Shown: positions 9,291-22,027, counted from the first letter of the stretch. The stretch: DNA of 32,000 bases from Synechococcus sp. A15-28 (GCF_014280175.1 NZ_CP047931.1:600001-632000); one strand, 5' to 3'. Program-made: numbers and translations. The notes: generated by a model not told the origin, from the letters alone.

Positions 9291-10388
9291 GTGCCCGATC
9301 CCAGGGATCTGCAGCTCAGCAGTTACGACTACCGGCTGCCGCAGGAGCGGATCGCCCAGGCTCCGGCCGAACCACGCCACAGCGCTCGGCTTCTGATGGT
9401 GCCCCAGGCGACCCAGGGGCTCGATGAAGCCAGGCACGGGACGGTCTGGGATCTGCTGGAGGAATTGCAGCCTGGCGATCTTCTGGTGGTGAACGACACC
9501 CGGGTGCTCAAGGCACGGTTGAAGGTGCGTCGCTCCGGTGGTGGGCTGTCGGAGCTGTTGGTGCTGGAGCCCCGCGGGGAGGGGCGTTGGCTTTGCCTGG
9601 CACGACCGGCGAAGCGCATGCGGCCCGGCGATGTGCTCAGCATCGATGGCACCTCGATCAGCCTGACGGTGCTGGATGAGGATGCCGCCAGTGGGGGGCG
9701 TTTGGTCCAGTTCCCGACGGACTGCCGAGATGCGGAGACAATCGAGAGGCTGCTGAATCAGTGGGGCGAGGTTCCACTCCCCCCTTACATCGACCGGCAC
9801 GACCCCGACGATGCTGATCGCTATCAGACTCGCTACGCCGACCGACCTGGCGCGGTTGCGGCACCAACGGCGGGTTTGCATTTCAGCGATGAACTGCTGG
9901 CCGGTCTCCAGCGCAAGGGAGTGGACCTGGCACGCATCACTCTTCACGTGGGACTCGGTACGTTCCGCCCCGTGGAGACGGAAGATCTCACCCAACTGGA
10001 ACTGCACAGCGAGTGGATCGAGGTCAGTGCGGCGGTGGTGGAGGCCATCCAGCGGTGTCCGGGCCGGGTCATTGCCGTCGGCACCACCTGTGTGCGGGCT
10101 CTGGAGGGGGCGGCTCAACAGAACGGTGGAGTTCTGCAACCGCTCACGGGGCCCGTCAACCTCGTGATTCAGCCGGGCTATCGCTTTCGGGTGGTGCAGG
10201 GTCTGGTCACTAACTTCCACTTACCGAAGAGTTCGTTGTTGCTGTTGGTAAGCGCCTTGATTGGACGGGAAAAGTTACTGCGTTTGTATGACGAAGCAAT
10301 TCAAAAGCAGTATCGATTTTTTTCTTATGGCGATGCGATGTGGATTCCACGGGAAGCGATTCTGCAATCAGCTCAGCTGATTCCATAA
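9291..10388 (+). CDS. queA: S-adenosylmethionine:tRNA ribosyltransferase-isomerase QueA
   Basis: 365 aa. ..[12 protein letters not shown].., ..TAGLHF.., ..[16 protein letters not shown].. and ..[12 protein letters not shown] are QueA signatures. The last ~180 nt are AT-rich, unlike the rest of the gene. Confidence 0.9.
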
Positions 10389-11023
10389 AATGGGTCCAAC
10401 CAGGAAATTTTTAGGGGGTCAATGTGGAGAAAGGCTGGCTGAATCATCAGTCTTTTTCCGGTAACGGCAGCTCGAATAGGTTCGCTTGTTTCCATCAATG
10501 ATTTGGCTGTGATGATGGCATGTTGGATGCAAGCGTTGGCATAGGACTGCTTCTCGTCAATGTTGATGCCATGACTGGTCAGTCCGAGCTGGATATCACG
10601 AACGAGCTCTGTTAAGGAAGCTGAGAAAACCTGATTTTTCAAATATGCAGCCTTTACTGCGCCGCAACCTTGATGACTCATCACAAGAAGGACGCTAACA
10701 TTGAGGTCAAGCACAGCATATTCAATCGAACCAGCTGACCCAAACGTGTTGGTATTTCCAGCATTGCGGATTACGAAAAGATCTCCAAAGCCTGCATCGA
10801 AGATCACTTCAACAGGAACTCTTGAATCAGAGCAAGCTAATAATGCAACTCGTGGGTGCTGCCCTCCGGCGAGTTGGTGCTCGCGTGCTTTTGTTGCGTG
10901 GGGGTGATGCGACGTGTTGCTCAAAAAGCGATCAAACCCTCGTTTGAGCTCTTCCACAACCTCGTTTGGATCAAAATACCCTTGGTTTGAGTCAACGTAA
11001 TAAGAGTCAATCATAAATTTCAC
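10373..11023 (-). CDS. Beta-class carbonic anhydrase
   Basis: 216 aa with the two zinc-ligand motifs of beta-CAs, ..[12 protein letters not shown].. (CxDxR) and ..MSHQGCGAV.. (HxxC). No N-terminal hydrophobic signal is visible. Its 3' end overlaps the queA 3' end by 16 nt, convergently. Confidence 0.85.
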
Positions 11024-11144
11024 AAGTTAACTTCCTCATTATTGCTATATAGATTAATGAAAGACGCTTTGGTCAGCAAATGCTAACTTTTTTCGGGATG
11101 TTTCTTGACTCGAGCCTCATAATTGAGGAAAGGTCACAACGTTA

Positions 11145-12557
11145 ATGCTTGCCGTTATTGTTTCACACTCGCTTTTGGCTTTGAAGGAGCCAGGTGCAGA
11201 AATTGAGGCTGCAACGGGGATGCTAGAGAAGCTCCCTTCGTTGCACTTCTCTTTTCAAGGGGCACTCCTATCACTCTCTCTGCTGTTGCTGGTCAGCATA
11301 CTGTCAGAAAAATTAGGCGTAAAGCTTGGAATACCTGGATCAATCTTCTTGTTTTTTGCTGGTCTCTTTTTTCATGTCTCAGGCTTTAGCTTTGAATCTT
11401 TTCCGTTAGAACAAGTTCATGTTGTATCGCTTTGTATATTGTTATTTTTCAGCGGGCTTTCCTTCGATCGGAAGCTTTTAAAAGAAAATAAAGTTCTATC
11501 TAATTCAATAAGTTTGGGTATTTTCGGAACCTTGCTTAGCATGGCTTTATGGCTGTTTTATTTAATCGTAGGTTTTGGTTTTTTTCAAGGTTTTTTTGGT
11601 TATCTAGAGGGTGTAAAGCAAGAGCTTGTCGAATTGCTCGTTGTAACTATTGTTTTTTCAATCGCAGTCCAGGATTGGAATTCATTTATGTTCGTATCTA
11701 AGAGAATCGTAGATTTTCGTTCAATTCTATCCAATATTTTTAGAGTTGAAACATCTATCTCAGCTTCGATCTCCGTAGCTGTTGCCGAGATTCTTGTTCT
11801 TGTTTGGCTCGCTCTGCATCCTGAGTATCAGCTCCTTAACGGATGGCAATTGTTCTCATCGATCTCCCAAGGAATATTCATTGGATCAGTATCAGGAATT
11901 GTTCTCGGTTACATTTTGATGCTGACAATTCGGTATGTCATTACGTCTAAACCTCAACTGGTTTTAGGTGCTGTTGCATTCACCCTGATCGGTTACGTAA
12001 TTTCTTTTTCAATTACTCACCAGGGTGGGTATCTCTGTGCGTTAGTGATGGGCATTGTTACCTCTTTGACCTATCGTAAAAGCTCAACTGAGGAAGAGAT
12101 AGAATTTCTAGCAGAAGAATTGGAGACACTCAATATTGCTTCTGAGGCAATCCTCTTCTTTGCGATTGGCCTTGGACTCAATGCAACTTCCTTCTTTGTT
12201 CACTTGCCAGTGGCGATCTATGTCTGGCTTGGAATCATCATCATCAGGCCAATTACAGTAAATCTCTTTTTCAAGGGCTCTCCTGCCATCGAGACTGAAG
12301 AACGTCAGCTCCTATCGATATGGAGTCCAAAAGGAGCCATTTCAATGGCCTTGGTGGTAACTGCACCAGAGCTGCTGGAGGGAACTTTTGGTATGGAGAT
12401 TGCTGAAATTTTTCCTGAAAGCGCTTCTAGCTTCTCGGCGGATGTGGTTTGCGGTGCTGTTTTGTTCTCGATGATTGTTAAATCCTTGGCGATTCCAAAA
12501 ATTCATTCCCAATTGATTCCCACTCAAAATACTATTACCACCAATCAAGAGGCTTGA
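11145..12557 (+). CDS. CPA-type (NhaP/CPA1-like) cation:proton antiporter-fold membrane protein, atypical
   Basis: 470 aa and highly hydrophobic, with about 11-13 TM segments. ..LLFFSGLSFD.. and ..WSPKGAISMALVV.. resemble the CPA1 consensus. GAGG lies at 11125-11128, upstream of the ATG. Confidence 0.6.
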   Translation: MLAVIVSHSLLALKEPGAEIEAATGMLEKLPSLHFSFQGALLSLSLLLLVSILSEKLGVKLGIPGSIFLFFAGLFFHVSGFSFESFPLEQVHVVSLCILLFFSGLSFDRKLLKENKVLSNSISLGIFGTLLSMALWLFYLIVGFGFFQGFFGYLEGVKQELVELLVVTIVFSIAVQDWNSFMFVSKRIVDFRSILSNIFRVETSISASISVAVAEILVLVWLALHPEYQLLNGWQLFSSISQGIFIGSVSGIVLGYILMLTIRYVITSKPQLVLGAVAFTLIGYVISFSITHQGGYLCALVMGIVTSLTYRKSSTEEEIEFLAEELETLNIASEAILFFAIGLGLNATSFFVHLPVAIYVWLGIIIIRPITVNLFFKGSPAIETEERQLLSIWSPKGAISMALVVTAPELLEGTFGMEIAEIFPESASSFSADVVCGAVLFSMIVKSLAIPKIHSQLIPTQNTITTNQEA

Positions 12558-12560
12558 GTT

Positions 12561-13223
12561 ATGTTGAAAAAAAAGCTGACAGATCGGTACCGGCTCTCAC
12601 GGGCAGTGTTGGTGGGCACAGTTATAACTCTTTTGTTCATGCCCATCTTGGCAACGAATGAAGCGACGACGATTGCAGTCGCATCTGCGCTTGCAGTGGA
12701 TTTTTGTATTTTTATCAAGCAATCCTGGCTCATTGACGTCAATAACACAAGGGATATCTTCCAGCAATTCGATGCGAAAGAATCATCTGTTGCAGAAAGA
12801 ACAATAGCGCTTGTATTTCTGAGTGTGGGCATATTGAGTTTCTGCATTGCGGAATTACATTCAAAGCATGATGTTCTGCCGAACTCAATTCATGTTTTTA
12901 TAAGTTTTATAGCACTATTTTTGACCTGGCTGCAGTTGCACAACGGATTTGCGCTTTACTATGCAAAAAAATACTTTGATATGAATCCGGTTCGACTTGA
13001 TGATCCTGAGGGGCAACTGGGATTTATATTTGAAGGAACAGAGCCAACATTTAGCGATTTTTTATATATTTCTTATTCGATAGGTCTTACTTATTCAATG
13101 ACTGACTGCGGCATCAAGGATTCTGCGGTTAGGCGAATTGTTATCATTCACTGCCTCTCTTCATTTCTCTACGCATCAACAGTACTGTCGATCATATTCT
13201 CATTGGCGACGCAAGTGAGTTGA
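12561..13223 (+). CDS. DUF1345-like integral membrane protein
   Basis: 220 aa. The C-terminal half ..HNGFALYYAKKYF..FSDFLYISYSIGLTYSMTDCGIKDSAVRRIVIIHCLSSFLY.. matches my recollection of the DUF1345 consensus. It starts 3 nt after the antiporter stop. Confidence 0.55.
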   Translation: MLKKKLTDRYRLSRAVLVGTVITLLFMPILATNEATTIAVASALAVDFCIFIKQSWLIDVNNTRDIFQQFDAKESSVAERTIALVFLSVGILSFCIAELHSKHDVLPNSIHVFISFIALFLTWLQLHNGFALYYAKKYFDMNPVRLDDPEGQLGFIFEGTEPTFSDFLYISYSIGLTYSMTDCGIKDSAVRRIVIIHCLSSFLYASTVLSIIFSLATQVS

Positions 13224-13358
13224 TCCGCAAAAGGGTTATCCATAACCTTTAGGGGTATGCATATGTGTGCGTTCCCTATTATTTTGTCGGGCGGCAGCGT
13301 TGGATACTTTCCAAATCCCGTATCTTCTCTACAATCAACTTGTGAACAGAATCAATCC

Positions 13359-13661
13359 ATGTTCGAACTCGAGTATCTCCTAGCTTTCGGCCTGGGTGCA
13401 GGTCTCGTTGCTCTTACCCCCGTTGTAGCTGCTGCTGCTGGAAAGGAAAGCGCTATCACCAAGACTGTTTCTGGCGCCGGACGTGGCTTGACAAAACAAG
13501 GTCTGAAAGCTGGTCTCTTTGTAGGAGGAAAGGTATCTGGACTGTTCACTGGCGTTAAGTCGGGTTTGAATGAGGTGGGTGAGAGCTTCGGCGACATTCT
13601 TGCTGAAGCGAAAGCAGACATGGCTACACCGAAAACTAAGACTTCATCACAAAAGGCTTAA
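13359..13661 (+). CDS. Small membrane-anchored glycine-zipper protein (DUF5132-like), paralog 1
   Basis: The start at the internal ATG is chosen because both paralogs then begin MFELE. It has a hydrophobic N-segment, a Lys/Gly period-4 region GLTKQGLKAGLFVGGKVSGLFTGVKSGL and an acidic tail. Confidence 0.6.
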   Translation: MFELEYLLAFGLGAGLVALTPVVAAAAGKESAITKTVSGAGRGLTKQGLKAGLFVGGKVSGLFTGVKSGLNEVGESFGDILAEAKADMATPKTKTSSQKA

Positions 13662-13664
13662 AGC

Positions 13665-14102
13665 TTGCCAATTACAGTTAAACATCGTGTATTTGGTCGT
13701 GTGAGATTTATTTGGGAGAAGAAATATACCAGTCACGAGATAAAGCTTATGGAATTATCGTTCTTGTATCATTTTCCTGAGTGTCGTTTTCGTTCTGCTT
13801 CAGGTAATACAGGTTGTGTGGTTCTTTTTGATGAAAGTAGTGATCAGCTTTTGTGCCATCAAGTGACTGATTGGATTCAGAATTTCATAGACTTTGCTGA
13901 GTGCCAAGGTCCGTTACTACCACCATCCAAAAGGGATATTCTGATCGACAAGGTTAAAGGTTGGACTGCTCAGTCCATGATTGTTATGGCTATTCTCGGA
14001 TGGATATTACCAATTCTTCCCGGTACTCCATTTTTCTTTGTGGCATGGTGGCTGGGTTGGAGGCCGTCGTCCACAAATCAGTCAGTTGTCGCCGAACCAT
14101 AA
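13665..14102 (+). CDS. Cysteine-free basic HMA-like (CoBaHMA/HMA2-like) domain protein with a C-terminal LPxxPG membrane hairpin
   Basis: TTG start 3 nt after the preceding stop. ITVKHRVFGRVRF ... ECRFRSASGNTGCVVLFDES follows the ferredoxin-like HMA pattern without CxxC. The C-terminus ..ILGWILPILPGTPFFFVAWWLGW.. resembles the DUF454/YbaN and PGPGW hairpins. Confidence 0.6.
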   Translation: MPITVKHRVFGRVRFIWEKKYTSHEIKLMELSFLYHFPECRFRSASGNTGCVVLFDESSDQLLCHQVTDWIQNFIDFAECQGPLLPPSKRDILIDKVKGWTAQSMIVMAILGWILPILPGTPFFFVAWWLGWRPSSTNQSVVAEP

Positions 14103-15170
14103 ACGCAGCCAGCTTTGAGTCATTTGTGCCCTATTGCATTGCATTGCTTCCAATTTTGCGGGCAATTCGATGCTTCTGCAGTATCCATTGTAGATCAAGT
14201 TGATGGTTGAATTGATCTGTTGAATATTCATATTATCTTTCTTCACCCCTGGTAGAAATATTTTCATGCAATGACTCTCTGTATTCCATTCTTCAATGCT
14301 TAAAGACTTATTCTTGTCTTTTAATGCGTTTGCCACGAGATCTGATTCGGGGACTGTGATCGAGCTGTTAAACGTTGTTGGTCCGTTTCGGCATTCATTT
14401 TCGATTTTGATATTGGATGTATTACTTGCGTCTTCGACAATCAGTAGATGCGGTATTGCACGGTGCATGCCTGCAACGCTTAATCGAGTTAGCAGCTGTT
14501 CCGGTTTGTAGTTTTTGCCATCAAGAATTAATGTGAAATGATGATTGCTCCGACCCGAGATCGTCTGTTGTAGGAGATGTAAACGACCTTTCCATGTTTC
14601 GTTGAGACGTAACTGTTGTGATGATGGTAAGCGTAAGCGCAGTAATTTTTCGACCGTTGAAAGTGTTTGACGCGTTGTGTCCCACCAGTTAAGCAAAGGC
14701 TCTAGCAATTGGTCGATCAAGGCTGGACCCTTTTGTGCCATTCCAAGTATTTTTAAAGCATGCAATGGCGTTGGGAGGATTACGATTAAAAGTGTACTTT
14801 TTGACGCACTGTCTAGTATTTCTGACAAGAAGATCAATCTCGTTAAGTCTTCGATCCCTGGAAGTTGCGGAAGCTCGATAGATTGTTTCCCTGCAATGTC
14901 GAGCAATTGCCACCAATCTTTGGCATGTGGATTGAGCTGTTCCCAAAGTCGAGCCAGGCTACAAATATAACTGAAATTTTCTACGATAAAATTCTTCTTG
15001 GCTATGAAATCTGATGTGTCTAAATCAATCTCTCCTGATAGATTAATCAATCTTGTGTCAGCATTTTCCTGCTGAGTATGTAGGAGCCCTTGCAACCATT
15101 GGTGTAGCGCTGAATACCGGTCTGCGCTTACCAAGAGAATCAAGGCACTGATTTCGTCTTCGAATGCCAT
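14082..15170 (-). CDS. ArsA/Get3-like protein lacking the P-loop, with an HSP20/alpha-crystallin-like C-terminal domain
   Basis: 362 aa. ..ILLVSADRYSAL.. aligns by eye to ArsA ..LLVSTDPAHSL.., and ..LIVILPTPLHALKIL.. to switch II ..DTAPTGHTLRLL.. No GKGGVGKT is present. The tail ..MKIFLPGVKKDNMNIQQINSTINLIYNGYCRSIELP.. resembles the ArsA_HSP20 domain. Confidence 0.6.
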   Translation of the reverse strand: MAFEDEISALILLVSADRYSALHQWLQGLLHTQQENADTRLINLSGEIDLDTSDFIAKKNFIVENFSYICSLARLWEQLNPHAKDWWQLLDIAGKQSIELPQLPGIEDLTRLIFLSEILDSASKSTLLIVILPTPLHALKILGMAQKGPALIDQLLEPLLNWWDTTRQTLSTVEKLLRLRLPSSQQLRLNETWKGRLHLLQQTISGRSNHHFTLILDGKNYKPEQLLTRLSVAGMHRAIPHLLIVEDASNTSNIKIENECRNGPTTFNSSITVPESDLVANALKDKNKSLSIEEWNTESHCMKIFLPGVKKDNMNIQQINSTINLIYNGYCRSIELPAKLEAMQCNRAQMTQSWLRLWFGDN

Positions 15171-15235
15171 TGTATCGGGAATGTCTTATTGGATTTCGGG
15201 ATTTTCGGGTAATATCTCCAAAATTCCATTACACC
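15171..15235. promoter_or_regulatory. Divergent promoter/operator region with tandem TTTCGGG repeats
   Basis: A 65-nt spacer lies between divergent starts. ATCGGG sits at 15174-15179, ATTTCGGG at 15193-15200, ATTTTCGGG at 15201-15209 and a TAATAT -10-like hexamer at 15210-15215. The 9-mer TTTCGGGAT recurs at 11091-11099. Confidence 0.3.
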
Positions 15236-15577
15236 ATGTTTGAACTGGAAACACTTGCTGCTTTCGGAGCAGGTGCTGCCTTGATGGCGTTAGCACCAGT
15301 TGTTCGAAAAATGGGCAATGAAGAGCTTGGAGACTCCATGGGGAAGGCAGGTCGCACGATGGCCAAAAGTGGAGTCAAGGTAGGTCTCGTTGCGGCAGAC
15401 GTTGCCGGAAAAGTTGCCAACGGTGTGACGAAGAACGTAGCTGAAGTCGCTGAATCGTTTGTGGACTTGGTTCAAGAAGCTAAGTCTGAGCGCGTTGAAC
15501 CAACAGATATCGACGCGGAACAGCCACCTACTGATGCATCCCGATCTCAGGTCATCACAGAAGTAACTGTCGAATAA
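15236..15577 (+). CDS. Small membrane-anchored glycine-zipper protein (DUF5132-like), paralog 2
   Basis: Begins MFELETLAAFGAGAALMALAPVV, parallel to paralog 1. Small-xxx-small periodicity GVKVGLVAADVAGKVANGV, a conserved ..VAESFVDLVQEAKSE.. and an acidic tail. Confidence 0.6.
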   Translation: MFELETLAAFGAGAALMALAPVVRKMGNEELGDSMGKAGRTMAKSGVKVGLVAADVAGKVANGVTKNVAEVAESFVDLVQEAKSERVEPTDIDAEQPPTDASRSQVITEVTVE

Positions 15578-15622
15578 GTCTGAATTCCATTCCAAATTTA
15601 TAATCTCTCTCCTACAAACATC

Positions 15623-18157
15623 ATGGCCACATCATTTCAGAACAGTTCAGGTTTTGGGGTCGTTGATGGAGGTGCTTCAGCACGAACATCTCGAGATCCT
15701 GCACTGCCACGATTCATTGATCGCATTCTTCATGCATCGTCTCGAAGACTTCGCTTCAGTGTGGAAACTGATTTCAAAGATCCAGATAACTTCACGCGAC
15801 ATATATCAACGCTTTCGTCAGTAGAGCAGGTTCGTTTTAATAGCTGGGCCTCTTGTTACATTGTAATTTTCAAGACTGGATATAAAATTGACGCTCTGCA
15901 ATGGCTAAGTTCACTACCACGGCGATCGCGTGAAATCCCTATTGTTCCAGAAGATTCGCTGACTGATACCGCCACTTCTACAAGCCTTCAGTCTGCTGAG
16001 GAAGAAGAGGAAAAATTTGTTCCAACGCGCATTATTCTCCCAGTTTGTTCTCTTGGTCTGGCCATAGCTGCTGGTCCTCTGGCTCTTCCTCCACTCGCCG
16101 TTGGAGTTTTTATCATTGGCGCAGCGCATCTGAGTTTCAAAAGAGCTTGGGAGGGTCTGAAAAAAGAGCGCAAAATTAATGTTGATTTTCTCGATGCCTT
16201 AGCTGTTTTGCTTCACAGCTTGGAGGGCTTTCTTTTGGGGCCAGCCATGATGATCACCATGATTGAGGGTGGTGAAGCTGTACGAGATGCTACTCAGCGT
16301 ATTGCTCACTCATCAAACACTGATCTTGTTTCCAGCCTTCAATCTGATGTGCGTCTGCTCACAGAAGATGGCGAGAAGATTGTTTCGAGTTTTGACCTTA
16401 GCCCTGGTGATCGTGTTTCGTTCCTGCCAGGAGACAAAATACCGATCGATGGTGTTATTGAGTCTGGTGAAGTTTCCCTCGATGTTGTGAAGCTGACGGG
16501 TGAATCAGTTCCGAGGATGTCGGGTCCCGGAGATGAGATTTTGGCCGGCTTTATTGTTTTGGAAGGCCACATTATTGTTACAACCTCTGCTGTTGGTCAT
16601 GACACGCGCGTCGGGCAGATCACTAAAATGATCGAGTCGGCGCCTGTTTTTGACACGCGTGTCGGAAATTTTGCCGCAAATATCGCCAATCGGTTTGTCA
16701 TCCCGACATTGGTTTTGGCGGGTGTCTCCCTGATGCTCAGTGCAGGCAATATTGCTCAGGCAGCATCTCTGCTCATGTTCGATCTTGGAACGGGGCTGCG
16801 TGTTTCAGTCCCAACTGCGATCATGGCTGCACTGACCAGAGCTGGAAGTCAAGGCCTGCTGATTCGTAGTGGACGTGCTTTGGAGCAGTTGGTTGAAGTT
16901 GATGTTGTCGTTTTTGATAAAACCGGTACGTTGACGGAAGGCCACCCGTCAATTGTTGAGTTTACTGTTTTTGACCAAAATGGAGCCCCCGATGAGTTTG
17001 TTGATGCTGATAAGTTTAAACACCTTTTGCAACTTTCCACATCACTTGAACAGGGGTTGAACCACCCGATCGCCAAGGCGATTCGTGATTTTGCTGAAGA
17101 GCAAGACGTCGACGTGATCGATTGCGAAAGCTGGGATTACAGGGTCGGTCGAGGTGTCGTCGCCACTGTTAATGGTGAGACGGTTCTTCTCGGAAACTTA
17201 AAACTTCTTCGGGAAGAGGGTGTCGAGATCTGGACAGTCGACTCCAAGCCTGAGCTGGACGTTGCTACCCCCATTTATCTTGCAGTTGATGGTCTCTTGG
17301 CCGGTATTCACTACGCCCTTGATCGTGTCAGACCAGATACGTCAGCCATGATCGCTGAATTGCATAACCGGGGTATTGAAGCTCATATGTTGACCGGTGA
17401 CATTTCCTCTGTCGCCCATGCTGTCGCTGCCGATATCGGCTTACAGCCTCATGAAGTTCATTCAGATGCCTTACCTGATCAAAAGGCAGAGTTGGTTCAA
17501 GAGTTCACTGCCGCAGGGAAGAAAGTTGTTTTTGTGGGTGATGGCATCAATGATTCAGCAGCCCTTGCCTATGCTGATGTCTCAGTATCCTTCGCCTCAG
17601 GCAGTGATTTAGCTCGCGAAACGGCTGATATTGTTCTCACGAATGATCGGGTCTCTGATCTGATTGTTGCCCAAGATTTAGCACGTCATACTTTTGCTTT
17701 GGTGAAACAGAACATTGGTATTGTCGGGGTTCCAAACTTATCGGCACTTCTGATCGGTACGTTCCTGCCAGTCAATCCCATCGCGGCTGTTTTCCTTAAC
17801 AATGGTTCCTGTCTTGTGGCAGCTGGCAATGCGATTCGGGCTCTTGGTTTCAAGGCCAAACCGCTACCTGAAATCGAAGCATCAGCTTCTACAGTGAATG
17901 TAGAAACAGTGCTCCCTGATACCGCTGCAGCTCAGGCCACGACAGAAGAAACTACCGACGAGAACGCTTCCTTACCCATCACTCATCTTGATTTGGCAGC
18001 TCTTTCACGTCGTGTTGGACTCAGTTATCAGAAGATCTCAGCCCGTCGTCGACGCAATGATTTTGCTGATTGGATATCGACTCATGATCCTGAAGGTCAT
18101 GGTTGGGAGTACAGCATTGATCTCAAAACATTCTCCATGGTTCCTGCGGTTTCATGA
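15623..18157 (+). CDS. P-type ATPase, P1B-like architecture, atypical (no CPx membrane motif, no CxxC N-domain)
   Basis: 844 aa with TGES (aa 292-295), FDKTGTLT (D432, nt 16916-16918), NHPIAKAI, MLTGD and GDGINDSAAL. The position of the P1B CPC reads LGT (nt 16784-16792). The N-terminal domain is HMA-like, with ..ILHASSRRLRFSV... Confidence 0.9.
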   Translation: MATSFQNSSGFGVVDGGASARTSRDPALPRFIDRILHASSRRLRFSVETDFKDPDNFTRHISTLSSVEQVRFNSWASCYIVIFKTGYKIDALQWLSSLPRRSREIPIVPEDSLTDTATSTSLQSAEEEEEKFVPTRIILPVCSLGLAIAAGPLALPPLAVGVFIIGAAHLSFKRAWEGLKKERKINVDFLDALAVLLHSLEGFLLGPAMMITMIEGGEAVRDATQRIAHSSNTDLVSSLQSDVRLLTEDGEKIVSSFDLSPGDRVSFLPGDKIPIDGVIESGEVSLDVVKLTGESVPRMSGPGDEILAGFIVLEGHIIVTTSAVGHDTRVGQITKMIESAPVFDTRVGNFAANIANRFVIPTLVLAGVSLMLSAGNIAQAASLLMFDLGTGLRVSVPTAIMAALTRAGSQGLLIRSGRALEQLVEVDVVVFDKTGTLTEGHPSIVEFTVFDQNGAPDEFVDADKFKHLLQLSTSLEQGLNHPIAKAIRDFAEEQDVDVIDCESWDYRVGRGVVATVNGETVLLGNLKLLREEGVEIWTVDSKPELDVATPIYLAVDGLLAGIHYALDRVRPDTSAMIAELHNRGIEAHMLTGDISSVAHAVAADIGLQPHEVHSDALPDQKAELVQEFTAAGKKVVFVGDGINDSAALAYADVSVSFASGSDLARETADIVLTNDRVSDLIVAQDLARHTFALVKQNIGIVGVPNLSALLIGTFLPVNPIAAVFLNNGSCLVAAGNAIRALGFKAKPLPEIEASASTVNVETVLPDTAAAQATTEETTDENASLPITHLDLAALSRRVGLSYQKISARRRRNDFADWISTHDPEGHGWEYSIDLKTFSMVPAVS

Positions 18158-18678
18158 CACCAACGCTTTGTTTGCGCCATCGCACCGATAGTCGCTGGAG
18201 GTTTGTGGTGACCCACGCATCCCAGTGTGATTGGGCTCGTCTGCAACGCGATCTTGTCGATGTTTTCCCCAACAGCAGCTGGTCTGTTCGAATCAATCAA
18301 AGGATTGGCTCGATTGTGGTTTGCCGCTTGGCTTCTGCACCACGCCTTCGTCAGGATCCGTTGTCATTGGTATTTGGGCGTGTTGCAAAGCAACTGAACC
18401 TTCAGGGATTTTCCGTCCCTGAAACCCCTTTAATCCCAACGGAAATCGTTGATCGGACCTCTCAGAAGCGGCTGAATGCTCTTCATTCGGTATTTCGTGG
18501 TATTGCCAATGCCGCTTCAGTGTCTTTATCCATATCTACTTTGTTATTGTCTCTGGCCCTCTTTATTATTGGTTTGCTGGGCATCCTTCTGCCATTTTCT
18601 CCAGGGATCTGGTTGTTGGTTGTAGCGACTGCTCTTTTTGACCTAGCCCTTTCTTTTCGTCGTCCTTTCGTCGTCTAA
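18154..18678 (+). CDS. Cysteine-free basic HMA-like (CoBaHMA/HMA2-like) domain protein with a C-terminal LPxxPG membrane hairpin, second copy
   Basis: ATGA start/stop overlap with the ATPase (18154-18157). LCLRHRTDSRWRFVV ... SVRINQRIGSIVVCR follows the HMA-like pattern. C-terminus ..LFIIGLLGILLPFSPGIWLLVVATALF.. Confidence 0.6.
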   Translation: MTPTLCLRHRTDSRWRFVVTHASQCDWARLQRDLVDVFPNSSWSVRINQRIGSIVVCRLASAPRLRQDPLSLVFGRVAKQLNLQGFSVPETPLIPTEIVDRTSQKRLNALHSVFRGIANAASVSLSISTLLLSLALFIIGLLGILLPFSPGIWLLVVATALFDLALSFRRPFVV

Positions 18679-18683
18679 ATCTC

Positions 18684-20780
18684 GTGACAATGCTTGCTGC
18701 GGCTTCACCATCCCCCTGGATCATCCGCAGCGAGCTCGCCGATCGAATTCGTGTCTTCCATCCAGGTTTGTCCTCCTCGCCTGGATTGCGCCAACATTGT
18801 GCGTCTTTGCTGCACCGGACGCATTGGCTGTTGAGTCACCGTATCAATGCTGTTTCTTCAACAGTAGTTATCCGATTCCACCCTCGCCAACGAGGCGATA
18901 TCACGCTCTTACTCGACCGTTGTTTCATTGACCCGGTAGCTGATTCGGGGCTTGAAAAGGCCCTTTCAGCAGAATCGCGCATCACAGACATCACGCACAG
19001 CTCCGCTTTTCAGAAGGCCCTTCGCACTGGCGCGATTTGCGGTTCAATTCTCTTCATTGATCCGATCGTCGCTGTTCCCCCGTTGGGTCTTGGCTTGGTG
19101 GCCACCATGCTGAGCTGGCCATTATTACGTGAATTATTTGAACAAGTGAACGAGCGCCTACAAGGAGAGGCTGATCCGCGACAGTTACTACCCCCTGCAT
19201 CGGTGGAGGTGGCACTGTCCGCTACGTTGATTGGATCAGGCTTGGCGCGTGAATCTCTTGTTGAAGGACTTCTAGGCAGTTCCACTTCGGCGCTTCAGTC
19301 GATGAGTGAGAACACCCAAGGATCAAGTTCGGAATTTTTTGCGTTTCTGGAGCGTCTGAAGACGTCAGTGATGCTGAGATGCATCGATATTCAAACAGAG
19401 GAAAGTACCTTGCTTCCTATTGGTGATCTTCAAGTTGGTCAACGCTATCGCTTGATGGACGATGATCATGTTTATCTGTCTTCCCGAGTTGTCCAAGGGG
19501 AGCTGGTTGTTACGAACAGCCTCAGCGATGGTTCCTCCCTGCCATTTCGTGTGGTGCCGGGTGATCACCTCGCCTTTGGGGCTTTTGTGCTGTCCGGAGA
19601 TGGTATTTGTGAAGTGGTTCAGTCGTTTTCTGAGGTCAGTCTCTTTAAGATCGAAGACACTCTTCTCGAGGAAGATGGATCAAGTGATTTCCAAAAGCGT
19701 TTGTCTTACTTGTACGATCTTCTGCTTCCTCCCGTACAGCTTGGATTTGGTGTTTGGTCGTTGCTGAATGGTCTAACAGAACGAGCCATTGGTTTGCTTT
19801 CATTTAACCCAGCTGAAGATTCTGAACGTTCCAAATTGTCTTCTTCAGAGTCAGCTTTGGTTGATATGGCACTCAATAATGTGCACATTTCAGATTCGCG
19901 CGTTTTTGAGACATTAATGGATGTTAGTCACATCATGATCAGCATCGATGCTTTGCGCCATCTTGGTACCTATTCTTGTCAACAAACCTTGTTAAATGGT
20001 GCTTCTGCACTTGATTGTGATTTACTTCAGATTCTTTGGGCTATTGTTTCTGATTTTGGTGCTGATCCATCTGTTGTCTTATGGGGAATTTTGAGTGATG
20101 TCCAAGAGAAACATCCTGCTCTTCAGTCTCTTGAAGTCAATGTCGGTGAATCGGATCAAGGTCTTTATCGCGTTGTCCTTGAAGGTCAGCCTGTCGTTTT
20201 AATTCGTTTCACGGAGAAGGATGGGGCAATTCATGCATCTTTCTCTACTGAAGAAGCGGATCTTGGTGTTATTACGATTACTTGGCGACCATCTCAAGAG
20301 TTTGAAATGATGTCGTCTCAGCTTTGTAAGCTTGGCATTTCAGTCTCTACGGTTGGTGCTCATTGTGGGCGCACTAAGGAAGCAGAAGACCGTAAGTCCA
20401 GATTGCTAGAGCTTCGTAATCAAGGATGTAAGGTGGCTTATCTTGGAGACGTTATTGACGATATTGCTGCAATGGCAGCAGCTGATATAGCTATAGGTCT
20501 TGCAGAGGATGAACTGGGCTTTATTTCTAAGACCGTTTGCGACATTGTACTTGGAGGCGATATTTTATGGTTGGCTCGTCTTTTTGTTTTGAGCCGAAAT
20601 TTTGTAGAAGCCAATCGTTTTAACACGAATTTGATTGTTGGCTCTTCTGTCCTGCTTGCAGCAGCCTCTCTTGTTGCCACCTTCTCGCCATTGCAAACGA
20701 TATTGCTATTTAACTCTGCTCCAATCATCGCTGAGATCAATACACTCAGGTCTCTCAACGGTTCAAGTTCCAGGCTATAG
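18684..20780 (+). CDS. Degenerate P-type ATPase paralog (probable pseudo-enzyme) with an N-terminal HMA-like domain
   Basis: 698 aa and collinear with P1B ATPases, but TGES becomes SDGS (aa 281-284), DKTGTLT becomes IDALRHLGT (D422, nt 19947-19949) and GDGINDxxAL becomes GDVIDDIAAM. TM segments are retained at both ends. Confidence 0.7.
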   Translation: MTMLAAASPSPWIIRSELADRIRVFHPGLSSSPGLRQHCASLLHRTHWLLSHRINAVSSTVVIRFHPRQRGDITLLLDRCFIDPVADSGLEKALSAESRITDITHSSAFQKALRTGAICGSILFIDPIVAVPPLGLGLVATMLSWPLLRELFEQVNERLQGEADPRQLLPPASVEVALSATLIGSGLARESLVEGLLGSSTSALQSMSENTQGSSSEFFAFLERLKTSVMLRCIDIQTEESTLLPIGDLQVGQRYRLMDDDHVYLSSRVVQGELVVTNSLSDGSSLPFRVVPGDHLAFGAFVLSGDGICEVVQSFSEVSLFKIEDTLLEEDGSSDFQKRLSYLYDLLLPPVQLGFGVWSLLNGLTERAIGLLSFNPAEDSERSKLSSSESALVDMALNNVHISDSRVFETLMDVSHIMISIDALRHLGTYSCQQTLLNGASALDCDLLQILWAIVSDFGADPSVVLWGILSDVQEKHPALQSLEVNVGESDQGLYRVVLEGQPVVLIRFTEKDGAIHASFSTEEADLGVITITWRPSQEFEMMSSQLCKLGISVSTVGAHCGRTKEAEDRKSRLLELRNQGCKVAYLGDVIDDIAAMAAADIAIGLAEDELGFISKTVCDIVLGGDILWLARLFVLSRNFVEANRFNTNLIVGSSVLLAAASLVATFSPLQTILLFNSAPIIAEINTLRSLNGSSSRL

Positions 20781-20815
20781 GGGTTGATTGTTAATTGATA
20801 TCTACAAATTCGAAT

Positions 20816-21421
20816 TCAGTTAACAAGTATCTTGACTCCGATGGCGATAAACAATGCCCCGCTTATGTACGACAGTCGTTTTTGACATAATCGATTTTTT
20901 AAACATTTTCCAGAGTAAACTGCCGTAATGGCTAAAAGAACGTTTGCGGCGACTGCTCCGGAGAAAATACTTTCAGCAGATATATTTGGACCTGCTGCTA
21001 AGGCAAGGAGTGCAAGTTGTGTGCGATCCCCGAATTCGGCTAAAAATGTTGTTGTGAAGGAGTTGCGTATGACGGCGTTGGCTGCCATCTTTGGTGCTGG
21101 TAATTGGAATTGGCTTGTATCGCATTCATCTTTGGCGACGTCAATCTTTGCTTCCAATCGTCTTGCTTCAATAATTGCGTTTGTGCCAAAGAGAAGGAAC
21201 GCAATACCCGAGACAATCTGAATGGTGTCGATGGATACGATCGATCTCATCCATACCCCAGCAGTGATCCAAAGTCCTGCCCCTATTGTGAGGGCTGAAA
21301 CGCTTCCAGTGAAAACCCAACGTGCTTTATGTCTTGCTGCCAGCAGAAGGGTAGTAATGAATGACTTATCTCCAACGCCTGCGATTGCGACAGTGGCGAA
21401 AGCAGTTGTGAACCCTGCCAC
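20816..21421 (-). CDS. UPF0016 / GDT1 / TMEM165 (Mnx-type) Ca2+/Mn2+:H+ exchanger family protein
   Basis: 201 aa in a two-repeat architecture. The second repeat has the canonical ExGD(K/R)(T/S) motif (..LAEFGDRTQLA..). The first repeat reads ..IAGVGDKSFIT.. GTG start. Confidence 0.75.
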   Translation of the reverse strand: MAGFTTAFATVAIAGVGDKSFITTLLLAARHKARWVFTGSVSALTIGAGLWITAGVWMRSIVSIDTIQIVSGIAFLLFGTNAIIEARRLEAKIDVAKDECDTSQFQLPAPKMAANAVIRNSFTTTFLAEFGDRTQLALLALAAGPNISAESIFSGAVAANVLLAITAVYSGKCLKNRLCQKRLSYISGALFIAIGVKILVN

Positions 21422-21499
21422 GATCTTTAAAAACTTTACAGAAACCCTATCGGAAAAGTCTCATGCCCGTTGTTTCCGTCAGTACATGTGGATATGGCT

Positions 21500-22027
21500 T
21501 CAGTGATTTGTGGGTTTCTTGATCAGCCAAGCTGTGCGCTGTCCGGCTCGATGGATCCGTTCAAACTCGAGGCCCATTCTGCGAAATCCAAGTTGACCAC
21601 TTGATAGTTGTACGGTCTGGGGCAAGCGCTTCACCTCGAGGAGCGAACAAATCTCGTGGCTAGAGAGTTCGATTTTTGTTGTTTTGAGCAAATGGAGAAG
21701 CTCAATTTTTTCACGCAGTAAACGTAGTTTGGAATACTTTCTGACGTCGTCTTGGAAAGGTTGCTCTGTATTTGTCTCGGTTGTTACTAGTTCATGATGG
21801 CTGCTGTTGGAGTCCACGGTGACGACTTCAGCTACCAGGGGGGCCTTCGGATTGTCCCGTCCGAGGTGGTCGTAGATAAGACCCGTTTCCTCCTGACGGA
21901 CCAAGGTGCGCATGCCTCGTCGAATTGGCTCAATTCCGAGTTCGCGAATGATGAGAAGCAGTTCAACGCGTGATATCCCTAGATCCGCCTCCAGGCTGCC
22001 AAGGCTGACTGCTTGCTGAGAGCTCAT
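21500..22027 (-). CDS. Hypothetical protein with an N-terminal helix-turn-helix-like segment (possible regulator)
   Basis: 175-aa ORF of intermediate G+C. ..LGSLEADLGISRVELLLIIRELGIEPI.. looks like an HTH. No family recognised. Confidence 0.45.
   Translation of the reverse strand: MSSQQAVSLGSLEADLGISRVELLLIIRELGIEPIRRGMRTLVRQEETGLIYDHLGRDNPKAPLVAEVVTVDSNSSHHELVTTETNTEQPFQDDVRKYSKLRLLREKIELLHLLKTTKIELSSHEICSLLEVKRLPQTVQLSSGQLGFRRMGLEFERIHRAGQRTAWLIKKPTNH

Follow-up and report, generated by a model that had tools for sequence, protein, structure and literature searches.

The window analysed here, a stretch of 32,000 nucleotides from Synechococcus sp. A15-28 (GCF_014280175.1, NZ_CP047931.1:600001-632000), carries on its plus strand (positions 15623-18157) a gene for a P-type ATPase, hereafter ATPase1 (QNI41731.1/WP_186587674.1). 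The host is a marine strain of clade III (PMC7522525). Judged from alignments, ATPase1 is a P1B-derived pump in which oxygen donors that never vary (D387, T390, N705, N726, N727 and S729), plus an arginine embedded in the membrane, R393, stand in for the thiophilic CPx site. Far from being an oddity, it has many relatives in a large conserved clade, which is related to the FezB/P1B-6 pumps of ferrosomes, yet lies outside them. We propose that ATPase1 pumps a hard cation, its putative substrate being probably Ca2+, within a compartment-building module. This proposal is held tentatively, with a confidence that stops a little short of even.

Identity and catalytic competence of ATPase1

The open reading frame (ORF) of 844 amino acids is real, as an earlier note, made from the sequence of this DNA alone, had proposed. 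All motifs named there lie exactly where they were placed: TGES at amino acids 292-295, DKTGT at 432-436 (D432), NHPIAKAI at 480-487, MLTGD at 589-593, GDGINDSAAL at 639-648 and EEEEE at 126-130. TGES, DKTGT, HP, MLTGD and GDGIND are invariant across 43 aligned relatives. The HP dipeptide (H481-P482), located in the N-domain, is a criterion of P1B-ATPases.

The protein is matched by Pfam E1-E2_ATPase and Hydrolase and passes the cut-off of TIGR01494. With NCBIfam TIGR01525, the model for heavy-metal pumps of class P1B, it reaches 444.7 bits (cut-off 346.25), so the P1B assignment is far beyond chance. Models of two P1B subgroups stay below their cut-offs (IB1_Cu TIGR01511, 317.2 against 397 bits; IB2_Cd TIGR01512, 308.3 against 313.5), and those of P2 Ca2+-ATPases, P3A H+-ATPases and P3B Mg2+-ATPases give 69-109 bits against cut-offs of 507-975. 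Best HMMER matches among PDB sequences are HMA4, CopA and ZntA (31-35% identity). By its catalytic motifs ATPase1 is an intact P-type pump, with phosphorylation, dephosphorylation and nucleotide binding all predicted to be preserved.

In total, 7,657 homologues were retrieved with E <= 1e-20. The 120 closest are all picocyanobacterial (marine Synechococcus, Vulcanococcus, Cyanobium) and share 57-95% identity with ATPase1; the nearest relatives outside picocyanobacteria share 33-48%. Since the fourth transmembrane segment (TM4) is invariant in 121 relatives and the catalytic motifs in 43, a decaying pseudogene is ruled out. Two records among the homologues carry likely annotation errors. The orthologue P0048 (Synechococcus sp. 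CBW1107) is named "Potassium-transporting ATPase ATP-binding subunit", and HBM51481.1, a fragment belonging to the cluster with at least 90% identity to ATPase1, is assigned to a Deltaproteobacteria metagenome-assembled genome (MAG).

The ion site in TM4-TM6

According to the literature, all seven recognised P1B subtypes carry a cysteine in the TM4 tripeptide (PMC13460109). ATPase1 has D387-L-G-T-G-L-R393 (positions 16781-16801, plus strand) where CPx pumps have A-C-P-C-A-L-G and FezB has D-Y-S-C-A-I-K. L388-G389-T390, encoded by nucleotides 16784-16792 within FDLGTGLRVSVPTAIM (amino acids 386-401), falls under C-P-C, as the earlier note had read it, and the arginine that it saw in the helix is R393. 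In the HMMER alignment to plant HMA4 (8q75), "sllmfdLGTglrvsvpta" stands under "svlvvaCPCalglatpta"; a MAFFT alignment with 21 CPx pumps gives the same register. A shifted but intact CPx motif was named in advance as a finding that would overturn the earlier reading, and none was found by HMMER against PDB sequences or in two MAFFT alignments.

The altered site is strictly conserved. FDLG[T/S]GLRVSVPTA occurs without exception in 121 family members (57-95% identity), and across the closest picocyanobacterial relatives the same holds for the fuller stretch LLMFDLG[T/S]GLRVSVPTAIMAAL. None of the 121 has a cysteine in TM4, nor any of CPC, CPH, SPC, PCP, SCA or CSC. TM5 (KQNIGIVGVPNLSAL) and TM6 (NPIAAVFLNNGS) are invariant or nearly so in the closest picocyanobacterial relatives. 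They contribute the polar residues N705 (in VPN) and N726-N727-G-S729-C730 (positions 17735-17812, plus strand), the counterpart of N...H-N-x-x-T in P1B-6. The ligand sets YN/MxxSS, K/DxG and HEGxT are absent from TM5 and TM6 of ATPase1, which read PN and NNGSC, respectively. No cysteine, histidine or methionine occupies a ligand position in TM4-TM6; the nearby C730 is variable within the clade.

This bears on the database name of the protein, "heavy metal translocating P-type ATPase", according to which ATPase1 would be an ordinary efflux pump for Cu, Zn, Cd or Co with shifted or unconventional ligands. The P1B core, the HP dipeptide and the TIGR01525 score are indeed shared with P1B-1, P1B-2 and P1B-4 pumps (CopA, ZntA, CoaT/CzcP). 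However, ATPase1 has neither the CPx or SPC motif nor the TM5/TM6 ligands of these pumps, it lacks any CxxC or His-rich metal-binding domain (the absence of CxxC had been noted before), and both the Cu and the Cd model remain below their cut-offs. We consider an ordinary efflux pump very improbable. With no P1B signature in TM4 and a clade of its own (see below), substrate specificity cannot be inherited from Cu/Zn/Co/Cd pumps, in agreement with the earlier reading.

A Cys-less clade next to FezB

To specify the relationship of ATPase1 to other pumps, 1.84 billion representative sequences were scanned exhaustively with HMMER, which gave 62,694 matches. The clade alignment comprises those 131 of the top 150 matches that are at least 560 amino acids long. 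Residues at the site were counted in sequences keeping DKTGT, with reference to the query residue (T or S at 390); a pair of residues without a count names those found most often at the position.

In the D-x-G-T-G-x-R group (n=62), positions 387 and 391 are D and G in all 62 sequences, 389 is G or A, and 390 is T or S in 59. R occupies 393 in 55 of them and N occupies 705 in 56 and 727 in 50; 726 is N or S, and 730 varies. The FezB/P1B-6 type (n=24) has D387, C390, N705, H726, N727 and T730 in all members, K or R at 393 likewise in all 24, S389 in 20 and A391 in 18. CPx pumps (n=21) show A or S at 387, P389, A391 and N705 in every sequence, C390 in 19, G393 in 17, M or H at 726, a variable 727, and S or T at 730. 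A further 17 aligned sequences are without DKTGT and fall outside the FezB-type and CPx groups. Hallmarks of the clade are D-x-G-T-G-x-R in TM4, PN in TM5, NNG[ST] in TM6 and an N-terminal CoBaHMA (R-rich, HMA_2) domain, and most members of the D-x-G-T-G-x-R group carry the N-terminal signature H-x-x-P-G-R-x-R-x-R.

A neighbour-joining tree was constructed from 132 sequences, top matches only (536 columns, 100 bootstraps). ATPase1 is found in its own D-x-G-T-G-x-R clade, split from FezB-type and CPx pumps at 83% bootstrap, and outside the FezB-type core group (97%). It is therefore not placed within any characterised P1B subgroup, with the reservation that neighbour-joining does not settle the deep branching order. 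Since ATPase1 also differs at the positions that define P1B-6, it is not a member of that subgroup.

The two types nevertheless have much in common. Published signatures of P1B-6/FezB are D[Y/F]SCA and HNxxT (bioRxiv 10.1101/2020.01.10.902569), or N-X18-H-N-X-(S/T) (PMC13460109). The ATPase1 clade shares with FezB an R-rich, HMA-like N-terminus without a metal-binding cysteine pair, D387, a basic residue six positions later (393), N705 and N727. In contrast, TM4 reads D-L-G-T-G instead of D-[Y/F]-S-C-A, and TM6 follows N705-X20-N726-N727-G-S729-C730, with His replaced by Asn and Thr730 by Cys or a variable residue. Six transmembrane segments are predicted for FezB, whereas eight are suggested for ATPase1 by its structural model and hydropathy, and ATPase1 possesses an extra folded domain at its C-terminus.

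The N- and C-terminal domains

The N-terminus of ATPase1 is probably formed by a CoBaHMA-type (R-rich, HMA_2-like) domain (amino acids 31-110; positions 15713-15952, plus strand) with conserved H37, R42, R44, R71 and N73. AlphaFold2 modelled this segment with a predicted local distance difference test (pLDDT) of 86-90 in the order beta-beta-alpha-beta-beta-alpha. This is an HMA/ferredoxin-like fold with an extra N-terminal strand, so that two strands precede the first helix. The R-rich motif reads R41-R42-L-R44-F, in which R42 and R44 are invariant. The description of the domain as cysteine-free did not hold, because C78 is present and the family consensus has one or two cysteines there.

Altogether four CoBaHMA-type domains are encoded in the window, in ATPase1, in a second ATPase and in two hairpin proteins (see below); R-x-R, R and N are invariant in their alignment. 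Pfam HMA_2 does not match the domain of ATPase1 itself and gives weak matches in 5 of 16 aligned domains; precomputed HMA_2 matches exist on the clade relatives P0123 and P0141. In published CoBaHMA (Pfam HMA_2) domains a conserved His lies on strand beta0, while strands beta1 and beta2 carry conserved basic residues; these domains equal the "R-rich motif" N-domain of Grant et al. (bioRxiv 10.1101/2020.01.10.902569). In sequence and model, the N-domain of ATPase1 agrees with this description.

At the other end, a "long basic C-terminal tail" had been claimed. Its length stands (103 amino acids, 742-844, past the last transmembrane segment), but it is not basic, with ten K+R, fifteen D+E and a net charge of -5. 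The tail consists of two parts, a variable acidic and Thr-rich linker (amino acids 742-786, net -6) and a conserved domain of 58 amino acids (787-844, net +1; positions 17981-18154, plus strand) with the Arg-rich helix RRVGLSYQKISARRRR. The AlphaFold2 fold of this domain has three helices and a beta-hairpin (pLDDT 83-88 in the full model and 85.9 when modelled alone). Foldseek against PDB gave nothing significant for it (best E 0.55), the weak matches being dominated by winged-helix (winged-HTH-like) regulators, and a profile search of the tail against PDB sequences gave nothing significant either. A hidden Markov model (HMM) of the domain matches C-termini of ATPase1 only, in all 13 loci with a conserved cluster (see below) and also on P0122. 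The domain may act in auto-regulation or may bind a nucleic acid, a polyanion or a partner. Homology of the tail to a 175-amino-acid ORF at 21500-22027 was rejected, since BLASTP between them was empty and the HMM did not match it.

A fez-like module

We wondered how the surroundings of ATPase1 compare with those of FezB. In fez clusters, fezA, fezB and fezC code for a hydrophobic GxxxG protein, a P1B-6 ATPase and an HMA-plus-2TM protein, with FezH as an extra R-rich ATPase; fez genes are needed for formation of ferrosomes, which are lipid-bounded iron-phosphate organelles (bioRxiv 10.1101/2020.01.10.902569). In the window, the FezA position directly upstream of ATPase1 is occupied by DUF5132b (15164-15577, plus strand). 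This paralogue of DUF5132a has a Gly-rich N-terminal transmembrane segment (GAGAA) and a long soluble helix, and its orthologues are present in all loci. Downstream, a gene for a CoBaHMA-like domain with C-terminal transmembrane hairpin (FezC-like; 18154-18678, plus strand) overlaps with its start the stop of ATPase1 (ATGA). It is followed by ATPase2 (18684-20780, plus strand), a pseudo-P-type ATPase of 698 amino acids with a CoBaHMA N-terminus (Pfam E1-E2_ATPase 29.6 bits, weak HMA_2 match).

Upstream lie DUF5132a (13257-13661, plus strand), a small transmembrane protein with GLGAG (GxxxG) that scores, when trimmed, 25.4 bits against the Pfam DUF5132 cut-off of 25, and a protein combining CoBaHMA with a DUF454-like helical hairpin (13665-14102, plus strand), assigned through weak DUF454 matches and alignment of the domain. 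An ArsA/Get3-like protein with HSP20-like C-terminus (14082-15170, minus strand) matches Pfam ArsA_HSP20 and, on its C-terminal part only, NCBIfam NosAFP. Both DUF5132 ORFs extend further 5' than their orthologues, which share the start "MFELE..."; true starts are likely M35 (nucleotide 13359) in DUF5132a and M25 (nucleotide 15236) in DUF5132b.

The fez-type partners, GxxxG small proteins (GLGAG, GAGAA) and R-rich two-TM proteins (13665-14102 and 18154-18678), are present. The order DUF5132b, ATPase1, CoBaHMA-2TM resembles fez clusters of Desulfovibrio magneticus, Shewanella putrefaciens and Rhodopseudomonas palustris, where FezH is paralleled by our second divergent R-rich ATPase. The same three-gene layout occurs in the FezB-type cluster of a sulfate reducer (L025). 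Its FezA-position protein is similar to DUF5132 in architecture and in the C-terminal "EDLVAEAR"; the HMM match (E 0.17) is not significant. Judging by sequence and layout, the two kinds of modules are at least analogous and probably homologous.

A further parallel is the "effluxosome" of Mycobacterium tuberculosis, CtpC/PacL1, with its P1B-6-like ATPase, R-rich N-domain devoid of CxxC, and small helper in which a single transmembrane segment precedes a long helix, as in DUF5132. CtpC, however, still has CPC and H-N-x-(S/T), and the metal that it exports is Zn2+, with Mn2+ as another proposal. Identity of DUF5132 with PacL/DUF1490 was rejected, as DUF1490 did not match the DUF5132 proteins.

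These parallels raise the possibility that ATPase1 is a ferrosome-type Fe2+/Mn2+ pump loading a lipid-bounded storage organelle, and that the altered transmembrane residues merely retune a site for borderline metals. Gene order and protein types speak for it, as do the FezB-like residues D387, basic 393, N705 and N727 and an R-rich N-terminus of the same kind as in FezB and CtpC. Members of the GDT1 family, one of which is encoded nearby, also move Mn2+ (Pfam description), and one distant relative of ATPase1 is located near DtxR-like and ZnuA genes. On the other hand, exactly those P1B-6 residues that could bind Fe2+ (S-C in TM4, H and T in TM6) have been replaced, and ATPase1 stands outside the FezB-type clade. 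The island contains no FeoA, ferritin-like or DUF4405 genes; the conserved partners are a carbonic anhydrase and, in the window, cation/H+ antiporters, not genes of iron homeostasis. FezB carriers are mostly anaerobes (bioRxiv 10.1101/2020.01.10.902569), whereas the host of ATPase1 is an oxygenic marine phototroph. We regard an Fe2+/Mn2+ pump as unlikely.

Dead partners of the active pump

ATPase2 has lost DKTGT, TGES, HP and MLTGD in all 11 orthologues, while the CoBaHMA N-terminus and a TM4 motif, FNPxxD[SW], are kept. A dead paralogue after the active pump is also found in two distant loci, L020 (11830-14100) and L021 (12141-14507); in the latter DKTGT has become GRTGT and GDGIND has become GEGMDD. 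Since the active/dead pair recurs in distant lineages, it suggests, at the level of sequence, that the active pump and its dead paralogue may form an obligate heteromer. The dead paralogue is not universally retained, being absent from Synechococcus sp. MIT S1220 (L002).

Walker A (GxxxxGK[ST]) is missing from all 11 orthologues of the ArsA/Get3-like protein in the related loci, and none is visible in the protein from the window. By this motif, the ArsA/Get3-like protein is predicted to be the second conserved pseudo-ATPase of the cluster.

One may ask whether ATPase1 transports ions at all. Along with the dead paralogue, CoBaHMA and ArsA-like proteins, it might instead serve as an ATP-driven conformational or scaffold part, whose task could be, for example, to remodel a membrane or its lipids or to act on partner proteins. 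The loss of the canonical metal site, the steady pairing with pseudo-ATPases and pseudo-ArsA, the anionic-lipid binding proposed for CoBaHMA domains and the unusual winged-helix-like domain at the C-terminus would all suit such a role. It is hard to reconcile, however, with how strictly TM4, TM5 and TM6 keep their polar and charged residues exactly where the ion site lies, and the fully conserved motifs of the A-domain (TGES) and P-domain speak for a transport cycle that is complete. A purely non-transporting role is quite improbable in our view.

Association with carbonate-related genes

The module is accompanied by genes of inorganic carbon and cation metabolism. A beta-carbonic anhydrase with intact CxDxR and HxxC (10373-11023, minus strand; Pfam Pro_CA 103 bits) adjoins it in 11 of the 13 loci. 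In the window, a membrane protein of the Na+/H+ exchanger family (CPA; 11145-12557, plus strand; Pfam Na_H_Exchanger 65 bits) is encoded in the island. A member of the GDT1/UPF0016 family of divalent cation (Ca2+/Mn2+):H+ antiporters follows ATPase2 (20816-21421, minus strand; Pfam GDT1 114.9 bits). The first signature of the GDT1 protein is G-V-G-D-K-S, without the usual Glu; the second is canonical (E-F-G-D-R-T).

A similar assembly surrounds ccyA, the calcyanin gene, which is a marker of intracellular CaCO3 (iACC, intracellular amorphous calcium carbonate; Benzerara 2022; Bruley 2025 preprint). Most calcyanins begin with a CoBaHMA domain. The genes that flank ccyA in Microcystis are two of DUF5132 type, one for CoBaHMA-DUF454, a further one with CoBaHMA, and cax; DUF5132, DUF454 and cax are co-expressed with ccyA. 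The neighbourhoods of ccyA and of ATPase1 thus share a CoBaHMA domain, two DUF5132 proteins, antiporters of Ca2+/H+ type and a CoBaHMA-DUF454 hairpin protein; the one at 13665-14102 has the same architecture as the Microcystis neighbour. They differ in that neither ATPase1 nor the pseudo-ATPase and ArsA-like genes appear in the parts of the published accounts available to us.

In six freshwater or brackish loci (L003-L006, L009 and L010), an ORF of 302-351 amino acids lies between the carbonic anhydrase and DUF5132a (minus strand; 6595-7560 in L003 and 7649-8629 in L009, with orthologues in the other four). Its product has a CoBaHMA domain followed by three GlyZip repeats (Gly/hydrophobic, period 4). 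A central Gly-Pro is invariant in repeat 2, which also gives a partial match to PdsO (TIGR03789), and Trp and Glu are conserved in repeat 3; all of these traits agree with published descriptions of calcyanin. The family counts only 66 members, all unnamed. We call the ORF calcyanin-like because neither single-sequence nor profile searches reached a named calcyanin. Pfam found nothing on it, and the partial PdsO match was the only one in NCBIfam.

Two other candidates were dismissed. The 352-amino-acid HMA_2 protein of L022 is not a calcyanin, having two CoBaHMA domains separated by a transmembrane hairpin. The ccyA region of Fischerella NIES-4106 is described as holding "two cation ATPases and a CA"; this plasmid was not among the top tblastn matches with ATPase1, and its ATPases are probably outside the ATPase1 clade.

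Proposed function

We propose that ATPase1 would be the active, ATP-hydrolysing pump of a fez-like membrane module comprising DUF5132, CoBaHMA two-TM, dead ATPase paralogue and dead ArsA/Get3-like proteins. It would follow the ordinary E1/E2 cycle of P-type ATPases: a hard cation would be bound from the cytoplasm at the D/T/N/N/S site, D432 would be phosphorylated, and the ion would then be released on the far side of the membrane. Built-in counter-charge pairs exist in ZntA (K693/D714) and in plant H+-ATPase (R655/D684), and R393 may similarly serve as the counter-charge to D387. The CoBaHMA domain and the winged-helix-like C-terminal domain would be regulatory or targeting, not metal-binding.

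The most likely cargo would be Ca2+ (or Sr2+, Ba2+, Mg2+ or Mn2+), moved into or across an internal membrane compartment in which carbonate chemistry and pH would be controlled by the co-encoded beta-carbonic anhydrase and cation/H+ antiporters. The idea of a hard cation, raised already in the earlier note, fits the all-oxygen polar set of transmembrane residues as well as the neighbouring beta-carbonic anhydrase, GDT1 and Na+/H+ exchanger genes. This context, with the calcyanin-like gene added, makes Ca2+ or a congener our best guess. Such a system would be a carbonate-handling counterpart of the ferrosome, tied to intracellular amorphous CaCO3 in those relatives that have a calcyanin-like gene in the cluster.

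A more specific version can be formulated, in which the whole island would specify a ferrosome-like, membrane-bounded store of carbonate or alkaline earths in picocyanobacteria of marine and fresh waters. The Cys-less pump, in an obligate pair with its dead paralogue, would load Ca2+ (or would pump H+ and so drive Ca2+/H+ antiport). Shaping of the membrane would fall to DUF5132 and CoBaHMA proteins, and carbonate would come from the beta-carbonic anhydrase. Such a complete scheme is doubtful.

Several observations weigh against the Ca2+ proposal. The putative site has a single acidic residue (D387), and this lies beside an arginine; compared with Ca2+-ATPases, high-affinity binding of a divalent ion would be poor, and a monovalent ion or H+ fits at least equally. 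Overall pLDDT of the full-length AlphaFold2 model is 67 and falls below 50 around TM4-TM6, so that the geometry of the site derives from alignment only. Single-sequence and profile searches with the calcyanin-like ORF returned only unnamed picocyanobacterial proteins, and tblastn of its GlyZip region against plasmids gave no match. An HMM search of the 32-kb window, L001 and L002 found no calcyanin-like gene, the rest of the A15-28 genome being outside this search. Distant members of the clade adjoin MgtE or DtxR/ZnuA genes instead of a carbonic anhydrase, and the cargo may therefore differ between lineages. Finally, the envelope of amorphous CaCO3 granules in cyanobacteria has been reported as a layer of about 2.5 nm that is "not a lipid bilayer" (PMC6087745); such a layer could not hold a pump with eight transmembrane segments. 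ATPase1 may instead reside elsewhere, for instance in the thylakoid or plasma membrane or in that of a precursor vesicle.

Because the site has only one carboxylate, a proton pump is a serious alternative. ATPase1 would then have a P3A-like site and energise the membrane for cation/H+ antiporters (GDT1 and the Na+/H+ exchanger here, CAX elsewhere), which would in turn load Ca2+ or other ions. The H+ site of plant AHA2 is composed of D684, R655 and N106, and D387, R393 and the Asn residues of ATPase1 could follow the same logic; H+-coupled antiporters are encoded both in the island and beside ccyA in other cyanobacteria. The likeness to P3A pumps (AHA2/Pma1), a buried Asp with a nearby Arg counter-ion and Asn residues, is functional analogy only, for the subfamily is unrelated (the P3A model gives 109 bits against a cut-off of 615) and the residues sit on other helices. 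ATPase1 is of P1B descent, and no H+-pumping P1B enzymes are known. Moreover, D387 with basic 393 also occurs in FezB-type pumps, thought to move Fe2+, so this pair may be mechanistic and not decisive for specificity. A proton pump is, on balance, rather improbable.

Returning to the hard-cation proposal, the storage-compartment version of it, if true, would fill a gap, namely the transport and compartment genes that underlie formation of intracellular amorphous CaCO3, and would define an eighth P1B subgroup that is non-thiophilic. The class P1B owes its definition to a Cys-containing TM4 site and thiophilic metals. A large, strongly conserved clade with oxygen ligands only would widen it to include hard cations or protons, and "heavy metal ATPase" annotations would have to be corrected by the thousand. 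Three threads studied separately would be joined: fez organelle clusters, the CoBaHMA/DUF5132/DUF454 proteins around calcyanin, and carbonic anhydrase with Ca2+/H+ antiporters. The cluster offers candidate genes for concentration of Ca, Sr and Ba by cyanobacteria and for intracellular carbonate precipitation, of relevance to carbonate geochemistry and radionuclide bioremediation. Recurrent pairing of active and dead P-type ATPases is an unstudied arrangement in its own right.

Earlier publications cover the CoBaHMA/HMA_2 domain family and report that "related R-rich P1B-ATPases" exist (the latter in bioRxiv 10.1101/2020.01.10.902569); a P-type ATPase gene of picocyanobacteria is mentioned, but not analysed, by Doré et al. 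In the literature we found no description of the D-x-G-T-G-x-R clade as a Cys-less subgroup, of the active/dead ATPase pair, or of the association of the module with beta-carbonic anhydrase and a calcyanin-like gene.

Genomic island and distribution of the cluster

Further, we examined the genomic setting of the cluster. It resides in a low-GC island between queA and cysK (10373-22027), with a GC content of 0.458 against 0.655 and 0.633 in the flanks and a third-position GC (GC3) of about 0.41 against 0.71-0.85. No tRNA genes and no convincing flanking repeats were found at the borders. Besides the genes described above, the island contains a DUF1345 membrane protein (12561-13223, plus strand), which is kept with the module, including on a plasmid of Gloeothece PCC 7822. 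The 175-amino-acid protein at its right edge (21500-22027, minus strand) is conserved, with orthologues in six loci, always at the edge of the cluster; it matches no family.

Core gene order is kept in 13 genomes or MAGs of marine Synechococcus, Vulcanococcus, Cyanobium and relatives. The GDT1 gene recurs in L001-L003; among the fetched loci, the Na+/H+ exchanger gene recurs in L001 only. L001 and L002 also share the insertion site between queA and cysK, again as a low-GC island, which makes three marine Synechococcus genomes with that of the window. GC content of ATPase1 in these three is 0.445-0.50 and GC3 about 0.41, against 0.85 in cysK. In freshwater and SC 5.2-type lineages the cluster has host-like GC (0.57-0.70). 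Marine Synechococcus, an abundant group, may accordingly have a related capacity encoded on a low-GC island that is mobile.

Beyond picocyanobacteria, the module is represented by DUF5132, small HMA_2 proteins and an HMA_2-ATPase, often with a dead second ATPase (L019-L022; plasmids of Gloeothece and Nostoc). The small proteins beside clade ATPases in L019-L022 are matched by the DUF5132 family HMM.

Two loci depart from the common organization. The complete genome of MIT S1220 has its island without ATPase2 and without the Na+/H+ exchanger. In L009, a Prochlorococcaceae MAG, both ATPase1 (10046-12604) and ATPase2 (13128-15344) are split in two ORFs and the ArsA-like gene is missing, so that either the assembly is faulty or this copy of the cluster is decaying.

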